DNA of 30,566 nucleotides from a virus (Duplodnaviria > Heunggongvirae > Uroviricota > Caudoviricetes), in the IMG/VR virus record IMGVR_UViG_2609459826_000004, positions 1-30,566 of that record; one strand, 5' to 3'. Below the pieces are notes generated by a model. It was not told the origin of the DNA. It worked only from the letters and a program-made list of their open reading frames with translations, and made no database searches. Both the position numbers and the translations under genes were made by a program. Position 1 is the stretch's first letter. Each line of letters starts with the position of its first letter. This document shows positions 2,835 to 17,264 of this stretch, one piece after another.

Positions 2835-5732
2835 TTATGCCTGAGTACGCAGCGCTTCAAGGCGGCGCAGGTCGAAGTCGTTCAGTTCGTCGGTGTAGTC
2901 AGCAGTGATTGGCGCTGGCCATTCACCTGTGTCGAATCCGGTTGCGATATTGCGCATCGCTTTGCGGTACTCGAGCATACCCAGCTCCAGTAGTTCAGCG
3001 GATGCCTCGATGATGGCGATCCAGTGGTAGTTCTCGTCTTTGTTGACGAAAATCCAGAAGAACTGATCCAGCGCTGCGGTTTCGCAGTACATAGCCGCGC
3101 TCAGGTGATAATCACGTTCAATAATTTCCCGGTGTAGCCTGGCGCGCAGGCTTTCCTGCTTAACATTCCACATGCTGATGGTTTTCAGGTCTGCACCTAT
3201 ACGCACGCCATCCAGGTCGATCTCAAGGTCAGGGCGCACACGAACTTCCAAGCCCGTCTCCTCGTCAAAACCAAAGTAGCTCACCTCAACGGCTCGGCTA
3301 GGGGGGGTCAGCAGCATGCCGGCGGTCGGGTGTGCCAGAAGCGCTTTTTGAATATTCAGCGCGGTGCTCAGCTGCTGGCGGGTGACCAGCACTTTTCCTT
3401 CCGGGTTATCGCGCCAGGCATCCAGCAGTTCGTCGGCAAATACGGCATCTGGTTTGACTGCCTTCACGGCCTGGATCATGTCTGCTTTGGTACCGGACAC
3501 TTTCAGTGGTGCCGGTTTCTGTGCTTCCTGAGCCACAAGGTCAGGGTTGATGATTGCCAACTGCTCCAGCAGCGCGTCACGGCTGCCGCTGGTTTTAACC
3601 GGCGGCGGCAGGGTGGCGTTGTACTCTTTAATGCATGCCTTCATTGCCGTCGCCGTCTGCTTCTGGTCACCATCAATACGCTGGAAGTCAGCTGGCAGCG
3701 CCATATAGTTCTGTGCCGTTTCTTCCAGGTTAGCGCCAAGCGGAACCTGCGGCGGCAGGGTGGCGTTGTACTCTTCCAGTAACACCTTGATGTCGTCGGC
3801 AGACAGCAGCGCCGGCAGGCTGGCATTGTGCTCATCGATAAAGGCGCGCAGGGTCGCGGCCGTTGTGAATGCGCCTTCAGGGATCACCGGTTCAACGCTG
3901 AATTCTGCGTCCAGTAGTTCAGGCTGCAACGCCAGCGCATGCACCAAGTTGCCCATGTCCAGCACCGCTGAGCGCTCTTTGACGATGGTTTTCTCTACGT
4001 GGCGCGCATTGAAGTACATCAGCGAAACGCGCGCATCTTTCACCTGGGTTGAGCTGATGCCGTTGGCGGCGTGGTAAACCTCGTTTGGCAGCCCTTCATA
4101 GCGGCCTGGCTCGAAATAAGCGGGATAAACAACAGCTGGTTCGTCAGATTGCGCTTCTGGCTCGGTTTGTGCTGCAACTGGTTCGGTTTGGCTTACAGAA
4201 TCGCTATTTTTGGCGACAGAATCCGTATTCTGGTCTACATCGTCCTTCTGGCTGGTATCTGACTCTTCACCAGACTCCAGACTGCTTTCGCCTGGCTGTA
4301 CTTCATCACCAGCTTGTTTTTCATCACTGACAGTTTCTTGAACCTGCACATTGCTGGTGGTCTCCGTAGCCTTTTTCGTGCCATGAGTTGCTGAGTTCTG
4401 CAGCAAAGCCGTAACGTCGAATATTCCGTTGCCGACATTTTTAACCAGTTCTTGTTCGACTTTCTGCGGTTGTGCTGCCGCTTCCTCTGCGCGGCGGCGT
4501 GCTCCTTCTTCACGCACGCGTTGCAGGTTCTCTTCGTGAGTGCAGAAGGATTTGCGCGGAGACTCCTTACCTTCAGGTTGGGGAATTTCCTGTGCTGCGG
4601 GTTCAGCCTCATGCAACGGCAATAACTCGACCGCGGAATTGAACGCGGCTGTCATGGTCTGGTTAACAAATTCCAGGTGAGCGACAGGAGTTAAATGAAT
4701 ATTTTCCGGTGCGATACGTACCAGGTTAAAAATAGCCGTGCGGTTAACACCCAGAACGCCTGGCTGATTGCGCAGGATGTTGCTCCATGATTTCCATGGT
4801 TCTTCTTTTTTGGTCACGATTTCTTTAGCGCGACGAAGAATGCTGCCCGGGATCTCGAAGTGGTTGAAGTCCATAGGCAGAAGGGCACACGCAATCTCTA
4901 AATCGAGAGTGTCCAGTGTGTGGTGTGCGTCAGGTCCACGGTCAGTGACGTAACCGCCGTCGGCATTAGTGCCGGAATCAGTACGCTGCACACTACTGAT
5001 GCGATTACCGGCGGCCCATTCGCGAACGAGGATACCGCGGTCGATGTGATCTGTAGCGAACCACAATTTCAAAAACTGGATTAAGGTTGCGAGTTCAGGG
5101 ATTTTTCCATCGACAGGGAAGACTTTCTTAACGGCATTCACGACTTTATGAATATCGTGCTCAATGGCTTTTTTGAATGCTTCCACATTCTCAGCTGCCA
5201 GCAGCAGGTTCTGGACGTAGCTGTTATCCACATCCAGCTCGAGTCCCTGAATAATTTTCTTTTGCTCAGAATCGATGTGATAAACGTATTCATCAGAGAT
5301 GAACTGAGCCAAGATACGCTGGCGCAAGGATAGGGTGGCGACAGTGATCAACTGCGGCTGTTCTGCCTGCTGGGATTCGTCTGCATGGCCGGTTTCACCA
5401 TCAACGACATTGTCATCAGCCTGGTGGTTTTCTTCCTGCGCCGCGTTATCAGCTTTCAATTTCACATTCCAGGTGCGCTGGTCTTCGGCCAGTTCGTAAC
5501 GATCACACCAGGTGAAATCAACTTCACCTTCTTCTGGCAGGTCATCAACAACCGGGAAGTCAGTGCGAATTGGTTTGGCGTAGTCCTTGCCGCGGCCGGT
5601 TTCGATGCCAGCATCTTCCAGCGCAACGTCCAGCATCAGGTTGGCGCGAGCCTCGGTTTTAGCAGTGAACCAGACCACTGCATCTTGCTTTCCGGATTTC
5701 TGAGTGGCTTTAACCACATTAAAGAATTCCAT
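2835..5732 (-). CDS. recE: Exodeoxyribonuclease VIII (RecE-like) 5'-3' dsDNA exonuclease
   Basis: 965-aa ORF. N-terminal segment IRTDFPVVDDLPEEGEVDFTWCDRYEL closely matches the E. coli Rac RecE N-terminus as I recall it ([26 protein letters not shown]). Acidic low-complexity linker, C-terminal nuclease-sized domain, GAGGA RBS 6 nt before the ATG. Confidence 0.8.
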   Translation of the reverse strand: MEFFNVVKATQKSGKQDAVVWFTAKTEARANLMLDVALEDAGIETGRGKDYAKPIRTDFPVVDDLPEEGEVDFTWCDRYELAEDQRTWNVKLKADNAAQEENHQADDNVVDGETGHADESQQAEQPQLITVATLSLRQRILAQFISDEYVYHIDSEQKKIIQGLELDVDNSYVQNLLLAAENVEAFKKAIEHDIHKVVNAVKKVFPVDGKIPELATLIQFLKLWFATDHIDRGILVREWAAGNRISSVQRTDSGTNADGGYVTDRGPDAHHTLDTLDLEIACALLPMDFNHFEIPGSILRRAKEIVTKKEEPWKSWSNILRNQPGVLGVNRTAIFNLVRIAPENIHLTPVAHLEFVNQTMTAAFNSAVELLPLHEAEPAAQEIPQPEGKESPRKSFCTHEENLQRVREEGARRRAEEAAAQPQKVEQELVKNVGNGIFDVTALLQNSATHGTKKATETTSNVQVQETVSDEKQAGDEVQPGESSLESGEESDTSQKDDVDQNTDSVAKNSDSVSQTEPVAAQTEPEAQSDEPAVVYPAYFEPGRYEGLPNEVYHAANGISSTQVKDARVSLMYFNARHVEKTIVKERSAVLDMGNLVHALALQPELLDAEFSVEPVIPEGAFTTAATLRAFIDEHNASLPALLSADDIKVLLEEYNATLPPQVPLGANLEETAQNYMALPADFQRIDGDQKQTATAMKACIKEYNATLPPPVKTSGSRDALLEQLAIINPDLVAQEAQKPAPLKVSGTKADMIQAVKAVKPDAVFADELLDAWRDNPEGKVLVTRQQLSTALNIQKALLAHPTAGMLLTPPSRAVEVSYFGFDEETGLEVRVRPDLEIDLDGVRIGADLKTISMWNVKQESLRARLHREIIERDYHLSAAMYCETAALDQFFWIFVNKDENYHWIAIIEASAELLELGMLEYRKAMRNIATGFDTGEWPAPITADYTDELNDFDLRRLEALRTQA
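3597..3775. repeat. Intragenic 32-bp direct repeat (2 copies, 1 mismatch) inside recE
   Basis: aacc[g/t]gcggcggcagggtggcgttgtactctt at 3597-3628 and 3744-3775, 147 bp apart (in frame), with a degenerate third copy near 3811-3833. Encodes repeated E(E/K)YNATLPP peptide units. Confidence 0.6.
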
Positions 5733-5872
5733 GTGAGATCCTCATTTTTGGGTGTTAGAATCCCCGGACCATTGATAGCGCCCATTGGGTTAACTTTGGT
5801 TTTAATGTTGTTTCCGGTGTAACTTTGGTCGGTGAGGCCGGACATGGCGGGCCCACTTCGGTGGGCTTTCGC

Positions 5873-6245: not shown

Positions 6246-6404
6246 TTAACTTTCGTGCGCCATCTGGTCGTATTCAGCGCATTGCTTAGAGCAATATTCT
6301 TTTTCTTTCTGTGCCAGTTGCGAACCGTTGAGATAGAGCAAGGTGCTCTTTACTTCTGCGCCTTCTTCAACAGGCTTGTGGCAATAACCACATTCTTTTT
6401 TCAT
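6246..6404 (-). CDS. Small Cys-rich protein (putative zinc-binding), 52 aa
   Basis: Below the 60-aa cutoff of the ORF track. ATG at 6402-6404 (minus) preceded by AAGGA at 6-nt spacing. Translation MKKECGYCHKPVEEGAEVKSTLLYLNGSQLAQKEKEYCSKQCAEYDQMAHES has CxxC and CxxxC pairs. Confidence 0.35.
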   Translation of the reverse strand: MKKECGYCHKPVEEGAEVKSTLLYLNGSQLAQKEKEYCSKQCAEYDQMAHES

Positions 6405-7547: not shown

Positions 7548-7825
7548 CTTTAAAAGCTCCCCGGTCTGGGTAAGCACTTCGCTGGCGTCTACATTGAGCA
7601 GTAGTGGCGCCATTTTTTTATCTGACATATACACCCCTCTGATTGTTTACCGTCAGCCCCTCGCAAAGAGCTGCTGGTAAATCGTTTAGCCATAATTGCC
7701 GCTCTTCCTGAGCCCGCCTATGGTCCGACGCATGGTTTACTGTCGCGCCGTTCGACTGACCGAATCTCCACTTCGCCGCTGGCTAACTTCGCTCAGCTGT
7801 CGATGTTTCGTTTCGATGGGGTAAA

Positions 7826-7900
7826 TTTAGCGTTATGCTAAATTATGCGCAATAGCAAAATGCTAAATTGTTGAATGGTTTTATTTAGCGTATTGATTAA
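7826..7900. promoter_or_regulatory. Left operator region (OL-like), 2-3 repressor-binding palindromes
   Basis: TTTAGCGTTATGCTAAA (7826-7842), AATAGCAAAATGCTAAA (7851-7867), weaker TTTAGCGTATTGATTAA (7884-7900). The first is the exact reverse complement of the OR site at 8729-8745. Confidence 0.6.
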
Positions 7901-7937
7901 TAAGCGATTAAAAATTTACAGCGAAGGAATTCGGGAC

Positions 7938-7965
7938 GTAAAAAAGCCCGCGCGATGGCGGGCTT
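7938..7965 (-). terminator. Intrinsic terminator downstream of the repressor gene
   Basis: Hairpin AAGCCCGC / GCGGGCTT (7944-7965, loop GCGATG) followed on the minus strand by a U-run (complement of A7941-A7945), just after the cI-like stop at 7984. Confidence 0.5.
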
Positions 7966-7983
7966 GAGGGGTTTTGCGTGAGG

Positions 7984-11000: not shown

Positions 11001-12370
11001 GCCGTTTTATCGATTTGTACGTTGAGCAGGCCGTCATCGGCGGGATCATGCTCGCAGCGGGCCGCACAGACGGCGTTGACATGGCGACTGACGCGATTGA
11101 GGGGCTGACTGAGGACCACTTCACAGCAACGCCTCACAAGGTGGCTCTGCGGTCCTACAAACGCCTCAACGAGTCCGGGGAGAAGATAGACCTGCTGACG
11201 TTGACCAGCGACCTTGAACGGCTTGGCGCGCTGGAAAGTGCCGGGGGATTCGCTTACCTGGCTGAATGCAGCAAAAACACACCGTCGTTCGCGAACCTTG
11301 CCTCGTACTGCGAAAAGTTGCGGGAAATGCATCTCGGCCGCCGGATGACCCTGGCGCTACAGGTAGGGATCCAGAAGCTGTCCGAACCATCCAGTGAGGG
11401 TATCGCTGACATCATCGGCAACATACAGGCGGATATCTCTGGCATCGAGCACAACACCGACTACGGCACCGAGCACATCACCACCGGGATCGACATGTCC
11501 CTCGAGACTATCCAGTCGATTATCAGCGGCGATATCTGGAAGCACAAAACCGAGCTGGGCATGGCAACCATCGACAGCGCATTCGGCGGGTTCAACAACA
11601 CCGATTTCATCGTTGTCGGCGGGCGCCCTGGCATGGGGAAAACTATGTTCAGCACCACCGTGACCGAGACAGTCGGCCTGAAAAACAAAAAGCCGGTGCT
11701 GTTCTTCAGTCTCGAGATGCCAGTGGAACAAATCTCTGAGCGAGTCGCGTTCCACCGGGCCCGGGTGAGCAAAGAGGATTTACTCAGCAAGCAGAGCGGC
11801 GTGATGGATGGTGCCTGGGGAAAGGTCGGCCACTGCATGAAGGATTTCATCGAAGCCCCGATCTATATCAACGACAAGCCATCCCTCAGCGTTCATCAGG
11901 TGCGAGCGGAAGCCAGGCGAATGAGCAAGAAACTGGGTGGACTTGGTGTGGTCATTGTCGATTACCTCCAGAAGATGCGCATGTCTGACCCTGAGAACAT
12001 GAACCGCAGCGTAGGGGAGATCGCAACCGGCCTGAAAAACCTGGCGAAAGAGTTGCGTTGCCCGGTCATCGCACTGGCTCAGCTTAACCGTAAGGTCGAA
12101 GAACGTGCTAATAAGCGCCCGGTCGCAGCTGACCTCCGCGAGTCCGGTGTTATCGAGCAGGAAGCCGATGTGATTTTCATGATCTACCGGGATGAGAAAT
12201 ACAACCCGAACACAGAACTGAAAGGCATCACCGAAATCATCTGTGTGAAGTCCCGCCATGCGCCGGGGGCAGAAAAGACCTACCACTTCAGCAGCCGCTA
12301 CTCAGGCCTGGACCCGGTAGATTTCACCTACAGCGGCCAGATGCAACAGGAGGCTGACTATGAGTGCTAA
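10997..12370 (+). CDS. dnaB: Replicative DNA helicase, DnaB family (phage-encoded)
   Basis: 457-aa ORF. Walker A GGRPGMGKT, then LFFSLEM, VIVDYLQKM and LAQLNRKVEER...ESGVIEQEADVIFMIYRDE motifs, characteristic of DnaB-type hexameric helicases. ATGA overlap with the upstream initiator gene. Confidence 0.9.
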   Translation: MSRFIDLYVEQAVIGGIMLAAGRTDGVDMATDAIEGLTEDHFTATPHKVALRSYKRLNESGEKIDLLTLTSDLERLGALESAGGFAYLAECSKNTPSFANLASYCEKLREMHLGRRMTLALQVGIQKLSEPSSEGIADIIGNIQADISGIEHNTDYGTEHITTGIDMSLETIQSIISGDIWKHKTELGMATIDSAFGGFNNTDFIVVGGRPGMGKTMFSTTVTETVGLKNKKPVLFFSLEMPVEQISERVAFHRARVSKEDLLSKQSGVMDGAWGKVGHCMKDFIEAPIYINDKPSLSVHQVRAEARRMSKKLGGLGVVIVDYLQKMRMSDPENMNRSVGEIATGLKNLAKELRCPVIALAQLNRKVEERANKRPVAADLRESGVIEQEADVIFMIYRDEKYNPNTELKGITEIICVKSRHAPGAEKTYHFSSRYSGLDPVDFTYSGQMQQEADYEC

Positions 12371-12674
12371 GACGATGAAAGGCAAACAGGCAATTCTGCG
12401 TTATCTCGAAACGCACCGGACCTTCACCGCGAAGGATGTGGCCACAGAGTGCGGCATGACCATCAACTGCATCACGAAGAACGCTATCGATCTGGAGCGG
12501 GCCCGCAAGATTGTCCGGGTGAGCAAGGTCTGGCGAACGGTGACTTATCGCCTGGCTACGCCGGAAGAGCAGGCTGGTACCGCGCGCAGCTGTACCAATG
12601 GAATATTTCAGGAGTGCCGCAACAGTCCGGCGATGAAGCGAGTATTGATGGTTTGGGGGAGGGTAGGGGTATGA
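12360..12674 (+). CDS. Hypothetical protein
   Basis: 104-aa ORF; AGGAGG RBS 7 nt upstream of the ATG; overlaps the dnaB stop. Confidence 0.4.
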   Translation: MSAKTMKGKQAILRYLETHRTFTAKDVATECGMTINCITKNAIDLERARKIVRVSKVWRTVTYRLATPEEQAGTARSCTNGIFQECRNSPAMKRVLMVWGRVGV

Positions 12675-14515: not shown

Positions 14516-14847
14516 ACGATTTCGTTAAGCGAATTCAGCGTCTTGAGGCGGAGCGTGGTAAGACCATCACCACTGAGGTGGAGCTTGTCTCTTACGTCAA
14601 AGAGCGCAGCACTGGAAGCTCTGAGGCTCGTTACTACGTTAAGCACAGCAACCAACAGACGGTGCTTGAGCAGGGAATGGTGATAAACAGAGATGGGTTT
14701 GGTAATCATCAAGCCAGCATCATCATCACTGATTTTCCGGGGCAGAAAACTCCGGAAGACGCGGCGCTCAAACTGGCTGATTGGTTAAAGCGCCTAGGAG
14801 AGTCCATCGAGGCTAATTTCAAAAAGCCAGAGGTGGATGATGCCTAA
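14512..14847 (+). CDS. Hypothetical phage protein
   Basis: 111-aa ORF, ATGA overlap with the upstream gene. Confidence 0.5.
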   Translation: MNDFVKRIQRLEAERGKTITTEVELVSYVKERSTGSSEARYYVKHSNQQTVLEQGMVINRDGFGNHQASIIITDFPGQKTPEDAALKLADWLKRLGESIEANFKKPEVDDA

Positions 14848-15060
14848 CCCATTCGACGCATAACTAAACGTCAAGCAACGTTTGATAAAACACTATCAAC
14901 GAGCCATAATAAATCTGCCAGCGGCCTGAACAACCCTGGCAGACTTCTTCGCATTTAAGGGGACTTAAATGCGACCACAATATGAACTTCTCACCTTGTC
15001 ACAGATGCAGAAATGCACCTGCGATTTTCTGTATTCTGCGTTACCTCTCGGAGGTGGCGT

Positions 15061-15498
15061 ATGAAACAGCCTGTTTTCTACCTCCGCGACGAACGCGTTC
15101 GCGATAACCTCATCGACTACATCAGGAAGCTGCCCGTTAACGACGCTCTGCCGCTCGTGGTGAAGTTTTCTGAGGCTGACCGCACTCTCGCCCAAAACGA
15201 CCTCTTCCACGCTCTCTGTGGCGATACAGCGAAGCAATTGCAATGGGCTGGCAAGTCGCGCGACCTCGCTTCATGGAAAGTCCTGTATGTCTCAGGCCAT
15301 GCCATTGCCACCGGTAAGCCTGGTGAAGTGGTGCCGGGTCTGGAAGGGGAGTTCTGCGCCATCCGGGAAAGCACTGCGAAGATGGGCATCCGTCGCATGA
15401 CCAGTCTCATCGAATACAGCCAGGCATTTGCTGTGCAAAACGGCGTGCAACTCCGTGAAGTTCGCTACTCAGGTGATTACTTCGGGAGGGTTGCGTAA
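15061..15498 (+). CDS. ninB: NinB (Orf-family recombination protein)
   Basis: Start at internal ATG 15061 with GGAGG 6 nt upstream. The segment LAQNDLFHALCGDTAKQLQWAGKSRDLASWKVL parallels lambda NinB (LDQNRKLWACLGDVSRQVEWHGRWLDAESWKCV) as I recall it. Confidence 0.8.
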   Translation: MKQPVFYLRDERVRDNLIDYIRKLPVNDALPLVVKFSEADRTLAQNDLFHALCGDTAKQLQWAGKSRDLASWKVLYVSGHAIATGKPGEVVPGLEGEFCAIRESTAKMGIRRMTSLIEYSQAFAVQNGVQLREVRYSGDYFGRVA

Positions 15499-16598: not shown

Positions 16599-17096
16599 AT
16601 GAAACTGGAATTAACCAACGACCAGCATCAATGGGTAGACCAGTGGCTCCAGTTGTGGGGCGCATGGTGCCAGACCGGCAAGATTGATAAAGCGATGATC
16701 AACATGATTGCCAGATTCATGGCTACCGTCGAGCCCCAGCAAGCATCACGGCCGGTATGTAGTGATGATGACGGAATGCTCATTGATGCTGTCATTCGCC
16801 ACTACCTGAAGAATGTGGATGAAAATGCCTGGCGGGTTATCTTCGCCTACTATGTCTGCAACTCCAGCGAGATCCGAATTGCATCATGGCAGCATGCAGT
16901 AAGTAAGCCTCGCCTTATGAAGACGCGTGGCGGCAATCAGTACAAACACCCAAGCATCTCGACAATCCGTAGAGAGGTGAAGCAAATCATCAATGCTTCA
17001 TTGTTCTGTTTATACCAACCGCTTCAAAATGCGTTTAACGATCGCGAAAATGTGAGGAAAATTGCAAATAAATCACACAACGTGCTTGCAATTTAA
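16599..17096 (+). CDS. Q: Late-gene antiterminator Q (Q-type family)
   Basis: 165 aa. Motifs WLQLWGAW...SRPVCSDDDGMLID...FAYYV resemble Q-type antiterminators of lambdoid prophages. Sits immediately upstream of a terminator/tRNA/lysis cluster. Confidence 0.75.
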   Translation: MKLELTNDQHQWVDQWLQLWGAWCQTGKIDKAMINMIARFMATVEPQQASRPVCSDDDGMLIDAVIRHYLKNVDENAWRVIFAYYVCNSSEIRIASWQHAVSKPRLMKTRGGNQYKHPSISTIRREVKQIINASLFCLYQPLQNAFNDRENVRKIANKSHNVLAI

Positions 17097-17161: not shown

Positions 17162-17190
17162 GCCTCGCCATCGTGCGGGGCTTTTTATTT
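17162..17190 (+). terminator. Intrinsic terminator downstream of Q (tR'-like)
   Basis: Hairpin GCCTCGC / GCGGGGC (7 bp, one G-U pair, loop CATCGT) followed by TTTTTATTT. Confidence 0.55.
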
Positions 17191-17264
17191 GCCTGTAGCT
17201 CAGAGGAAAGAGCAACCGCCTTCTAAGCGGTTGGTCGCTGGTTCGAATCCAGCCAGGCGAGCCA
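17189..17264 (+). tRNA. tRNA-Arg (anticodon UCU)
   Basis: Hand-folded cloverleaf: acceptor TTGCCTG/CAGGCGA, D-arm GCTC/GAGC, anticodon stem ACCGC/GCGGT with loop CTTCTAA (anticodon TCT), 5-nt variable loop, T-arm GCTGG-TTCGAAT-CCAGC, discriminator G and encoded CCA. Closely parallels E. coli argU architecture. Confidence 0.8.

Follow-up and report, generated by a model that had tools for sequence, protein, structure and literature searches.

Upstream of ninB in a lambdoid prophage we have found an RNA hairpin whose pairing is conserved while the sequence of its stem is not. The window, i.e. the whole stretch of DNA analysed, comprises 30,566 nucleotides (nt) of IMG/VR record IMGVR_UViG_2609459826_000004 (positions 1 to 30,566, Caudoviricetes), and protein profile searches together with the order of its open reading frames (ORFs) identify it as a lambdoid prophage. 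The element in question, inverted repeat 1 (IR1), lies at 14914-14943 in the gap that precedes ninB. Judged by sequence comparison, its conservation and covariation in more than 100 homologues are far above chance, and we consider it very probable that IR1 is a selected structure of the plus-strand RNA. As to its role, we tentatively favour a weak, non-canonical transcript-boundary hairpin heading the nin unit (a ylcH-like ORF, ninB, ninE, ninG and Q).

A preliminary description of this DNA had drawn attention to an 8-base-pair (bp) stem with a 14-nt loop and a T-rich tail, located in an unusually long intergenic gap within a tightly packed operon, and had offered two meanings for it, a weak terminator at a transcriptional boundary or a protein-binding site. 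The gap is indeed long among closely packed flanking genes: 213 bp (14848-15060; 210 had been claimed) separate the end of the upstream ORF at 14847 from the ninB start at 15061. It is not plain intergenic DNA, as it houses a full regulatory cassette and a small gene. The parts of the cassette are as follows.

14882-14910, plus strand: sigma-70-type promoter-like site, with the -35 element TTGATA at 14882-14887, a 17-bp spacer and the -10 element CATAAT at 14905-14910.
14914-14943, plus strand: RNA stem-loop IR1, with a 5' arm of 14914-14921 plus G14923-G14924, a bulged C14922 and a 3' arm of 14934-14943.
14944-14949, plus strand: tail or linker CUUCUU between IR1 and IR2, UUCUG in most homologues.
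14949-14974, plus strand: inverted repeat 2 (IR2), a perfect 11-bp hairpin with the loop GGGA (-14.6 kcal/mol, z = -5.8), which the preliminary description had missed.
14969-15064, plus strand: 31-codon ORF MRPQYELLTLSQMQKCTCDFLYSALPLGGGV, a homologue of K-12 ylcH and phage 82 orf33.
15002-15021, plus strand: hairpin 3 (HP3), CAG-A-UGCA GAAA UGCA-C-CUG, inside the small ORF and followed by CGAUUUUCUG (z = -2.5).
15037-15061, plus strand: hairpin 4 (HP4), in which UGCGUUACCUC pairs with GAGGUGGCGUA (-17.8 kcal/mol, z = -4.4).
15061-15498, plus strand: ninB, an Orf-family recombination mediator gene (phrog_72, E = 1e-38).

Folded as one piece, the 171-nt leader reaches -60.2 kcal/mol (z = -5.15), and its single hairpins have z scores from -4.4 to -5.8, with the exception of HP3. 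The repeat itself is found where it had been reported, TCTGCCAG at 14914-14921 facing CTGGCAGA at 14936-14943 with 14 nt in between. Arms and spacing thus hold, and the RNA fold refines the stem, since G14923 and G14924 form additional G-C pairs with C14935 and C14934, leaving C14922 bulged. The result is a 10-bp stem that closes a 9-nt loop, CCUGAACAA, at 14925-14933. None of 200 dinucleotide shuffles was as stable as this hairpin (-15.1 kcal/mol, z = -4.54). To call its tail T-rich was generous, as CTTCTTCG has only 4 T in 8 positions. The linker GACTTCTGCGC is almost invariant in alignment A2, and the distance from IR1 to IR2 is fixed at 4-5 nt in the homologues. A scan of the whole window at the Rfam gathering thresholds returned only a tRNA and isrB, both away from the gap, and a scan of 14780-15160 at E<=10 gave two chance-level matches and no family.

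In the window copy the minus-strand fold of IR1 is more stable than that of the plus strand. Therefore, the strand was called from the population of variants and not from the window sequence alone. Using HP3 as an anchor, and thus independently of IR1, we gathered 119 IMG/VR loci, which yielded 102 distinct sequences with 46 versions of IR1. All 46 fold into a hairpin of 8-14 bp with a loop of 7-9 nt, and their stems, exemplified by TCTGCCAG-GG, GTCACCGGAG, GCTGACGG, GTCGCAGTCGG and GCCGCCGG, differ wholly from one another. RNAalifold, run on a plain MAFFT alignment, reported the pair types AU73/GU20/GC9, CG73/UG12/AU11/UA6 and GC62/UG14/AU11/GU5/CG5/UA4. Because a MAFFT alignment of IR1 placed a gap in the stem, pairs were counted with our own script in a loop-anchored, ungapped registry of 57 distinct sequences instead of with a covariance model. 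In that registry, 546 of the 570 cells of pairs 1-10 (95.8%) hold a standard pair, and positions 2-10 each show two to six pair types. Sliding the 3' partner by 1-3 positions lowers the pairing to only 27-51%, and column shuffles retain a mean of 373 of 570, with none of 1000 shuffles reaching the observed number.

The same registry indicates in which nucleic acid the pairing acts. G.U combinations fill 72 cells and A.C combinations 9, an 8-fold asymmetry that would be meaningless for duplex DNA and places the pairing in the plus-strand transcript. The preliminary suggestion of a protein-binding site in the DNA does not agree with this pattern, as the arms vary freely with pairing kept and G.T is tolerated eight times more often than A.C. 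In a palindromic operator the half-site sequence would be conserved; in IR1 the arms change at positions 2-10 and the spacer that forms the loop is invariant. As a separate observation, the commonest IR1 variants are spanned exactly by a 9-codon mini-ORF, AUG UCA UCG/CCG GAG CCU GAA CAA CUC CGG UGA (L219 5815-5844, E. coli K-12 and most IMG/VR loci). We rejected it as a functional part; it is missing in the window and in several variant classes and is probably incidental.

The hairpin belongs to a cassette that travels as a unit. A blastn search matched the region from about 14895 to 15056 in HK225, phi80, HK639, phage 82 and in Klebsiella and Enterobacter phages, and homology is limited to about 185 bp, from the -35 hexamer to the start codon of the next gene. 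The 181-nt cassette was found in 3025 of 5426 complete E. coli genomes (56%), 1685 of the matches covering at least 80%. When one genome per species was scanned for the pattern, true copies were confined to Enterobacteriaceae (Escherichia, Enterobacter, Citrobacter, Lelliottia, Trabulsiella and Huaxiibacter); about half of the matches, all of them outside this family, were discarded as chance hits on the basis of their flanks. Phage 82, phi80, K-12 and more than 130 distinct loci share the layout, and the window has every part of the ylcH/orf33 leader: promoter, IR1, IR2, an ORF in the range of 29-34 codons, and a stop codon that overlaps the start of an Orf-family gene. The gene after the cassette is NinB in some phages and YbcN, likewise an Orf-family protein (PMC4118853), in others. 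The K-12 prophage DLP12 carries the whole cassette upstream of ylcH-ybcN.

The leader of phage 82 and of K-12 DLP12 is the same element as that of the window, homologous over about 185 bp. It differs in its stem, GTCACCGGAG/CTCCGGTGAC against TCTGCCAG-GG/CC-CTGGCAGA in the window, which is wholly different and yet compensated, and in the gene downstream, YbcN in phage 82 and DLP12 and NinB in the window. The element is already known as the uncharacterised orf33/ylcH leader of a GenBank record from 1996, and a supplement from 2021 contains its 3' end. The phage 82 record (X92588, 1996) annotates putative -35 and -10 elements, a 'possible regulator-binding site' (82-110) that corresponds to IR1, a ribosome-binding site and orf33. 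Its suggestion of a DNA site for a regulator is not supported by the substitution pattern. Our literature search found no functional study of the orf33/ylcH leader, nor is there an Rfam family.

The left edge of the conserved cassette coincides with the -35 element of the promoter-like site. In the window this site matches 10 of 12 consensus positions, and with one such site per 1.3 kb it is what chance would yield from the window alone. The evidence for a promoter comes instead from comparison among the homologues: at least 9 of 12 positions match in 90 of 102 distinct sequences, the 17-bp spacer is present in 98 of 102, and in three unrelated upstream contexts the -10 element (CATAAT, TGTTATAAT or TACAAT) stands at equal distance. 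From the end of the -10 element to the loop motif UGAAC it is 15-16 nt; to the IR1 stem it is 3 nt in the window and 3-4 nt in nearly all variants. A start about 7 nt past the -10 element would fall near the fourth stem base of IR1. The outer IR1 pairs, which lie upstream of this expected start, are still maintained, which suggests that the full hairpin matters in RNA arriving from upstream. A co-directional ORF whose end lies no more than some 75 nt from the -35 element is present in about 97 of 120 loci.

For the K-12 cassette, the Cappable-seq and SMRT-Cappable-seq supplements list no start site in either coordinate system. In phage Lambda_4C10 (L220 1-1360) the gene before the cassette is not co-directional; it is a divergent alpha/beta-hydrolase moron, separated from the cassette by some 270 nt without coding sequence, and the cassette's own promoter may there be the main source of nin transcription. 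The -35 region of the window also contains a palindrome, TTGATA-N6-TATCAA at 14882-14899 (plus strand), represented by TTGAT-N8-ATCAA in most homologues. An FNR site was considered at this place and rejected: the half-sites TTGAT and ATCAA match, but their spacing is N8 and not N4. Under microaerobic growth K-12 ylcH RNA is reported to be 2-fold up (PMC8910356).

Beyond IR1, each of the following hairpins involves a translation signal or the small gene. In IR2, which is the 'IR4' of the phi80 record, the Shine-Dalgarno sequence AAGGGGA of the small ORF occupies the loop and adjacent bases, and the AUG (14969-14971) lies in the 3' arm. IR2 occurs in 15 sequence versions with the compensatory arms CATTTAAG/CTTAAATG, CTAAACG/CGTTTATG, CTTTGAG/CTCAAAG and CATATGATT/AATTATATG; all of them retain the loop GGGA and a 3' arm that includes the start codon, and 14 of 15 are more stable on the plus strand. 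Of 132 distinct loci, 130 have the ORF intact, with a length of 29-34 codons (46 in two cases) and variation by in-frame indels. Its TGA (15062-15064) overlaps the ATG of ninB (15061-15063) as ATGA, and an overlap of the type ATGA or GTGA is kept in 127 of the 130 intact copies. Since Pfam, NCBIfam and PHROGs hold no family for the 31-amino-acid product, its identity rests on synteny and on a BLASTP match to YlcH (13 of 20 residues identical). The RefSeq annotation of near-identical E. coli prophages omits the ORF.

HP3 resembles a terminator, albeit a weak one with a weak U-run, and has an alternative pairing, AUGCAGAAA/UUUCUGUAU. It is nearly invariant in nucleotides, also in loci that were collected via IR1 alone. 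In two loci (L208 and L212) it is replaced by UGCC UAUC GGCA, so that the hairpin is kept while the peptide changes from QKC to PIG; there, it is the RNA and not the peptide that has been preserved. HP4 sequesters the ninB Shine-Dalgarno sequence GGAGGUGG by means of UUACCUC(U) and extends to the ninB start codon. An equivalent hairpin is present in all sampled homologues of the three C-terminal/Shine-Dalgarno sequence types, with a mean energy of -16 kcal/mol over 130 loci.

Evidence for a transcript boundary at IR1 comes from the K-12 homologue. Curated Term-seq 3' ends have been mapped in MG1655 at 572349 (+) and 572350 (+), where the sequence reads CAACACGGCATAATTATGTCACCGGAGCCTGAACAACTCCGGTGACTTCTG before and CGC after the end (Adams et al. 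2021, PMC7815308). These ends (..GGTGACTTCTG, then CGC) lie 5 and 6 nt past the DLP12 IR1 stem, equivalent to about 14949-14950 in the window, and the same list has no other 3' end at 572,200-572,599. They were observed in two of three growth conditions (PMC7815308), which are, to judge from their position in the file, LB at an optical density (OD) of 2.0 and M63. The 3' end was also retained in Supplementary file 3, whose filter calls for a mapped start 21-200 nt upstream (PMC7815308); this fits a promoter in the cassette without proving it. The TERMITe supplement contains nothing for the K-12 site. Termination, or cleavage within the linker, is the more parsimonious source of the end, since exonuclease trimming would have to pass IR2, which is about equally stable, and then stop at IR1. 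Furthermore, rusA of DLP12, downstream of the cassette, requires an inserted promoter for adequate expression (PMC4118853), a silence compatible with a block at the leader.

A second line of evidence is the comparison with lambda tR2. Both tR2 and IR1 occupy the slot between the replication/ren genes and ninB, ahead of Q, and both are plus-strand RNA hairpins just upstream of the ninB ribosome-binding site; tR2 is expected to hold unmodified polymerase back from nin-Q. In lambda the ren-ninB gap (40571-40643, 73 bp) holds tR2, CAGGCCTGC..GCAGGCCTTTTTATTT, a canonical terminator with an 8-bp GC stem followed by UUUUUAUUU, whereas IR1 has no U-tract and an invariant 9-nt loop. Unlike the window cassette, the lambda gap has no promoter, small ORF or further hairpins. 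Sequence similarity between IR1 and tR2 (40571-40643) was not found, and lambda is absent from the blastn matches. By analogy, IR1 can be regarded as a positional and functional counterpart of tR2 that is unrelated to it in sequence and is embedded in a more elaborate cassette with a promoter, four hairpins and a leader ORF.

Several observations weigh against a boundary hairpin. A U-tract after IR1 is absent, the tail being CUUCUUCG, or UUCUGCGC in most homologues, and with 9 nt the loop is larger than would be expected of an intrinsic terminator. In a score of the d'Aubenton-Carafa type, computed with Turner energies, IR1 of the window obtains -41 and IR1 of K-12 DLP12 and phage 82 obtains -20; the commonest IR1 variant is at -28, lambda tR2 at +16 and the terminator after cI in the window at +14. 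A simple terminator scan of the window did not list IR1 either. While a stable stem is present in the plus-strand RNA, in vivo 3' ends just past it are available for the K-12 DLP12 homologue only and not for the phage of the window, and the Term-seq signal there is low, with a score of about 1.6-1.9 thousand (PMC7815308), and may reflect RNA processing. RNA derived from the cassette promoter, if it began about 7 nt past the -10 element, would lack the outer 3 stem pairs. Moreover, a plain terminator needs no invariant loop, yet the loop core UGA(A/G)C is found in 102 of 102 variants of the IR1-independent set. Finally, our searches of the window detected no lambda-type boxA and no arginine-rich protein resembling N, which bears on how such a block is overcome. 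What persists of the earlier terminator proposal is therefore a weak boundary, for which covariation as plus-strand RNA, tR2 at the same position and the K-12 3' ends speak; a canonical terminator is contradicted by the tail, the loop and the negative score.

On this reading, IR1 would act as the first stem-loop of a structured leader, 3 nt past the -10 element and about 65 nt past the stop codon that ends the co-directional gene upstream. The 10-bp hairpin and the following CUUCUU would stop a fraction of the polymerases, or define a stable 3' end some 5-6 nt downstream, and we assume that the end arises by termination and not by processing. Such a boundary would limit unregulated transcription into nin-Q, the job of tR2 in lambda, and would be read through by antiterminated polymerase. 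In transcripts that pass IR1, IR2 would bury the ribosome-binding site and the AUG of the 31-codon ORF and HP4 would bury the ribosome-binding site of ninB; ribosomes translating the small ORF would open HP4 and re-initiate at the ATGA. Owing to this double masking, ninB would be translated only via translation of the small ORF.

This arrangement recalls the pyrBI and trp leaders, which are leader-ORF attenuators or translationally coupled leaders. In common with them the cassette has a short ORF first, a terminator-like hairpin within the ORF (HP3), masked ribosome-binding sites and a stop/start overlap. Unlike them, it has no evident run of regulatory codons, and the initiation region of its leader ORF appears to be locked in a perfect hairpin.

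The invariant loop suggests another role, in which a trans-acting factor (an RNA-binding protein of phage or host, an antisense RNA or a small RNA) recognises the hairpin by its loop and controls read-through or the translation of ylcH and ninB, with the stem serving only to present the loop. We regard this as unlikely, though with an appreciable chance of being correct. The loop core is constant in every variant while stem positions 2-10 all vary, the 9-nt loop is single-stranded, the spacing to IR2, the hairpin that would control translation initiation, is constant at 4-5 nt, and the weak U-tract speaks against plain termination. The loop also contains a YUNR-type turn, CUGA, and YUNR turns are typical of loops that nucleate RNA-RNA contacts. 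But we found no partner: the complement of the loop, GTTGTTCAGG, is uninformative in the window, without meaningful enrichment, and no conserved copy of it exists in the leader. There is one copy of IR1 per phage, with no second IR1-like hairpin in 1.1 Mb of related phage DNA, no boxA and no Rfam match. As the downstream gene varies between NinB and YbcN, a cis-encoded partner is not obvious apart from the YlcH peptide, which is itself altered in some variants. The more specific idea that the UGAAC loop docks a protein or RNA, and that the cassette is a nut/put-like or riboregulatory switch not recognised before, we consider improbable to a similar degree.

Nut boxB of lambda and P22 and the put RNAs of HK022 resemble IR1 in being promoter-distal or promoter-proximal RNA stem-loops of lambdoid early operons whose loop counts for more than the sequence of the stem. 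However, nut boxB has a 5-bp stem with a GNRA-like pentaloop and occurs together with boxA in each early operon, and IR1 is a single copy of a 10-bp/9-nt hairpin without boxA; unlike nut sites, IR1 is common to phages with differing immunity and antitermination genes. No boxA (CGCTCTTA-like) was detected near IR1, the sole match in the window lying at 6344 on the wrong strand. A nut-type site was thus rejected on account of the missing boxA, the 10-bp stem, the 9-nt loop, the single copy and the fact that no N-like protein was detected.

A 5'-terminal stem-loop that shields the ylcH-ninB mRNA from decay by RppH and RNase E, without any stop of transcription, is a rather improbable function. 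It would agree with the short distance of 3-4 nt between the -10 element and the stem, by which the first nucleotide would be paired, and with the filter of Adams et al., which implies a K-12 start no more than 200 nt upstream. But pairs 8-10 (and 11-13 in some variants) precede the expected start and are nevertheless paired and covarying, the start-site data sets that we searched contain no start, and neither the 3' end just past the hairpin nor the invariant loop would be explained.

Still less probable is a product of about 30 nt, made from the promoter and IR1 and acting in trans via its loop, although an RNA of this size would run from the start predicted near MG1655 572319-572320 to the 3' end at 572349/50, and the conserved promoter and the invariant loop with its YUNR turn would suit it. 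Such an RNA would not offer Hfq a U-rich 3' tail, its signal in the Term-seq data is very low, our analysis identified no target, and the outer stem pairs, which would lie outside the transcript, are still maintained. Known prophage small RNAs (AgvB/AsxR and the Pas small RNAs) were considered as candidates and set aside; they are located downstream of pR' and not at the cassette. Least of all do we expect a duplex DNA operator at which a dimeric regulator on both arms represses the overlapping promoter: a palindrome over the expected start has the classical operator position, and its arms differ between phages as those of immunity-specific operators do, but it is the pairing and not the sequence that is preserved (G.T 72 against A.C 9), the spacer is invariant and the arms are not, the variants in stem length and bulge all keep the hairpin, and one cassette serves phages with unrelated immunity regions.

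The surroundings of the cassette are those of a lambdoid early region. The genes in question are listed below in window order.

2835-5732, minus strand: recE-like gene; the RecE and Kil genes are both on this strand.
Upstream of the gap, in this order: genes for a CI-like repressor, Cro-like, CII-like and O-like proteins, DnaB, a Ren-like protein and several unknowns, followed by the gap.
12360-12674: Ren-like gene.
3' of the gap, in this order: NinB, a NinE-like gene, NinG, Q and tRNA-Arg.
16599-17096: Q antiterminator gene.

The tRNA-Arg (anticodon TCT, 17189-17264, plus strand) stands directly 3' of Q, in the usual moron/tRNA slot of lambdoid prophages. The Rfam match to isrB (RF01386, an Hfq-binding small RNA; 38.2 bits against a gathering threshold of 35) at 5774-5871 (plus strand) sits between the recE-like gene and a small minus-strand ORF. 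On the minus strand, the CI-like repressor gene is followed at about 7820-7975 by a strong terminator, AAGCCCGCC..GCGGGCTTTTTTT, and then by repeated palindromes of the AATTTAGCATAACGCTAAATT type, which are probably operators.

In lambdoid phages the switch from delayed-early to late expression depends on transcription that reaches Q, and in lambda this is set by the nin terminators. Many phages and prophages, Stx-type relatives and DLP12 among them, carry the cassette in place of tR2. The cassette shows clear covariation, is absent from Rfam and contains a small gene that annotation usually misses. In kind it is no surprise, as terminators and leaders abound in phage operons; it is unusual only in that the loop stays invariant while the stem beneath it covaries, which leaves an unlikely but not negligible role in factor recognition. 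If the loop does dock a factor, the switch would gate transcription and translation from the replication module into ninB and Q, and would operate in lambdoid prophages of more than half of the sequenced E. coli, including DLP12 of K-12. If the leader does impose a block, the silence of the DLP12 genes from ybcN to rusA would be explained as well.

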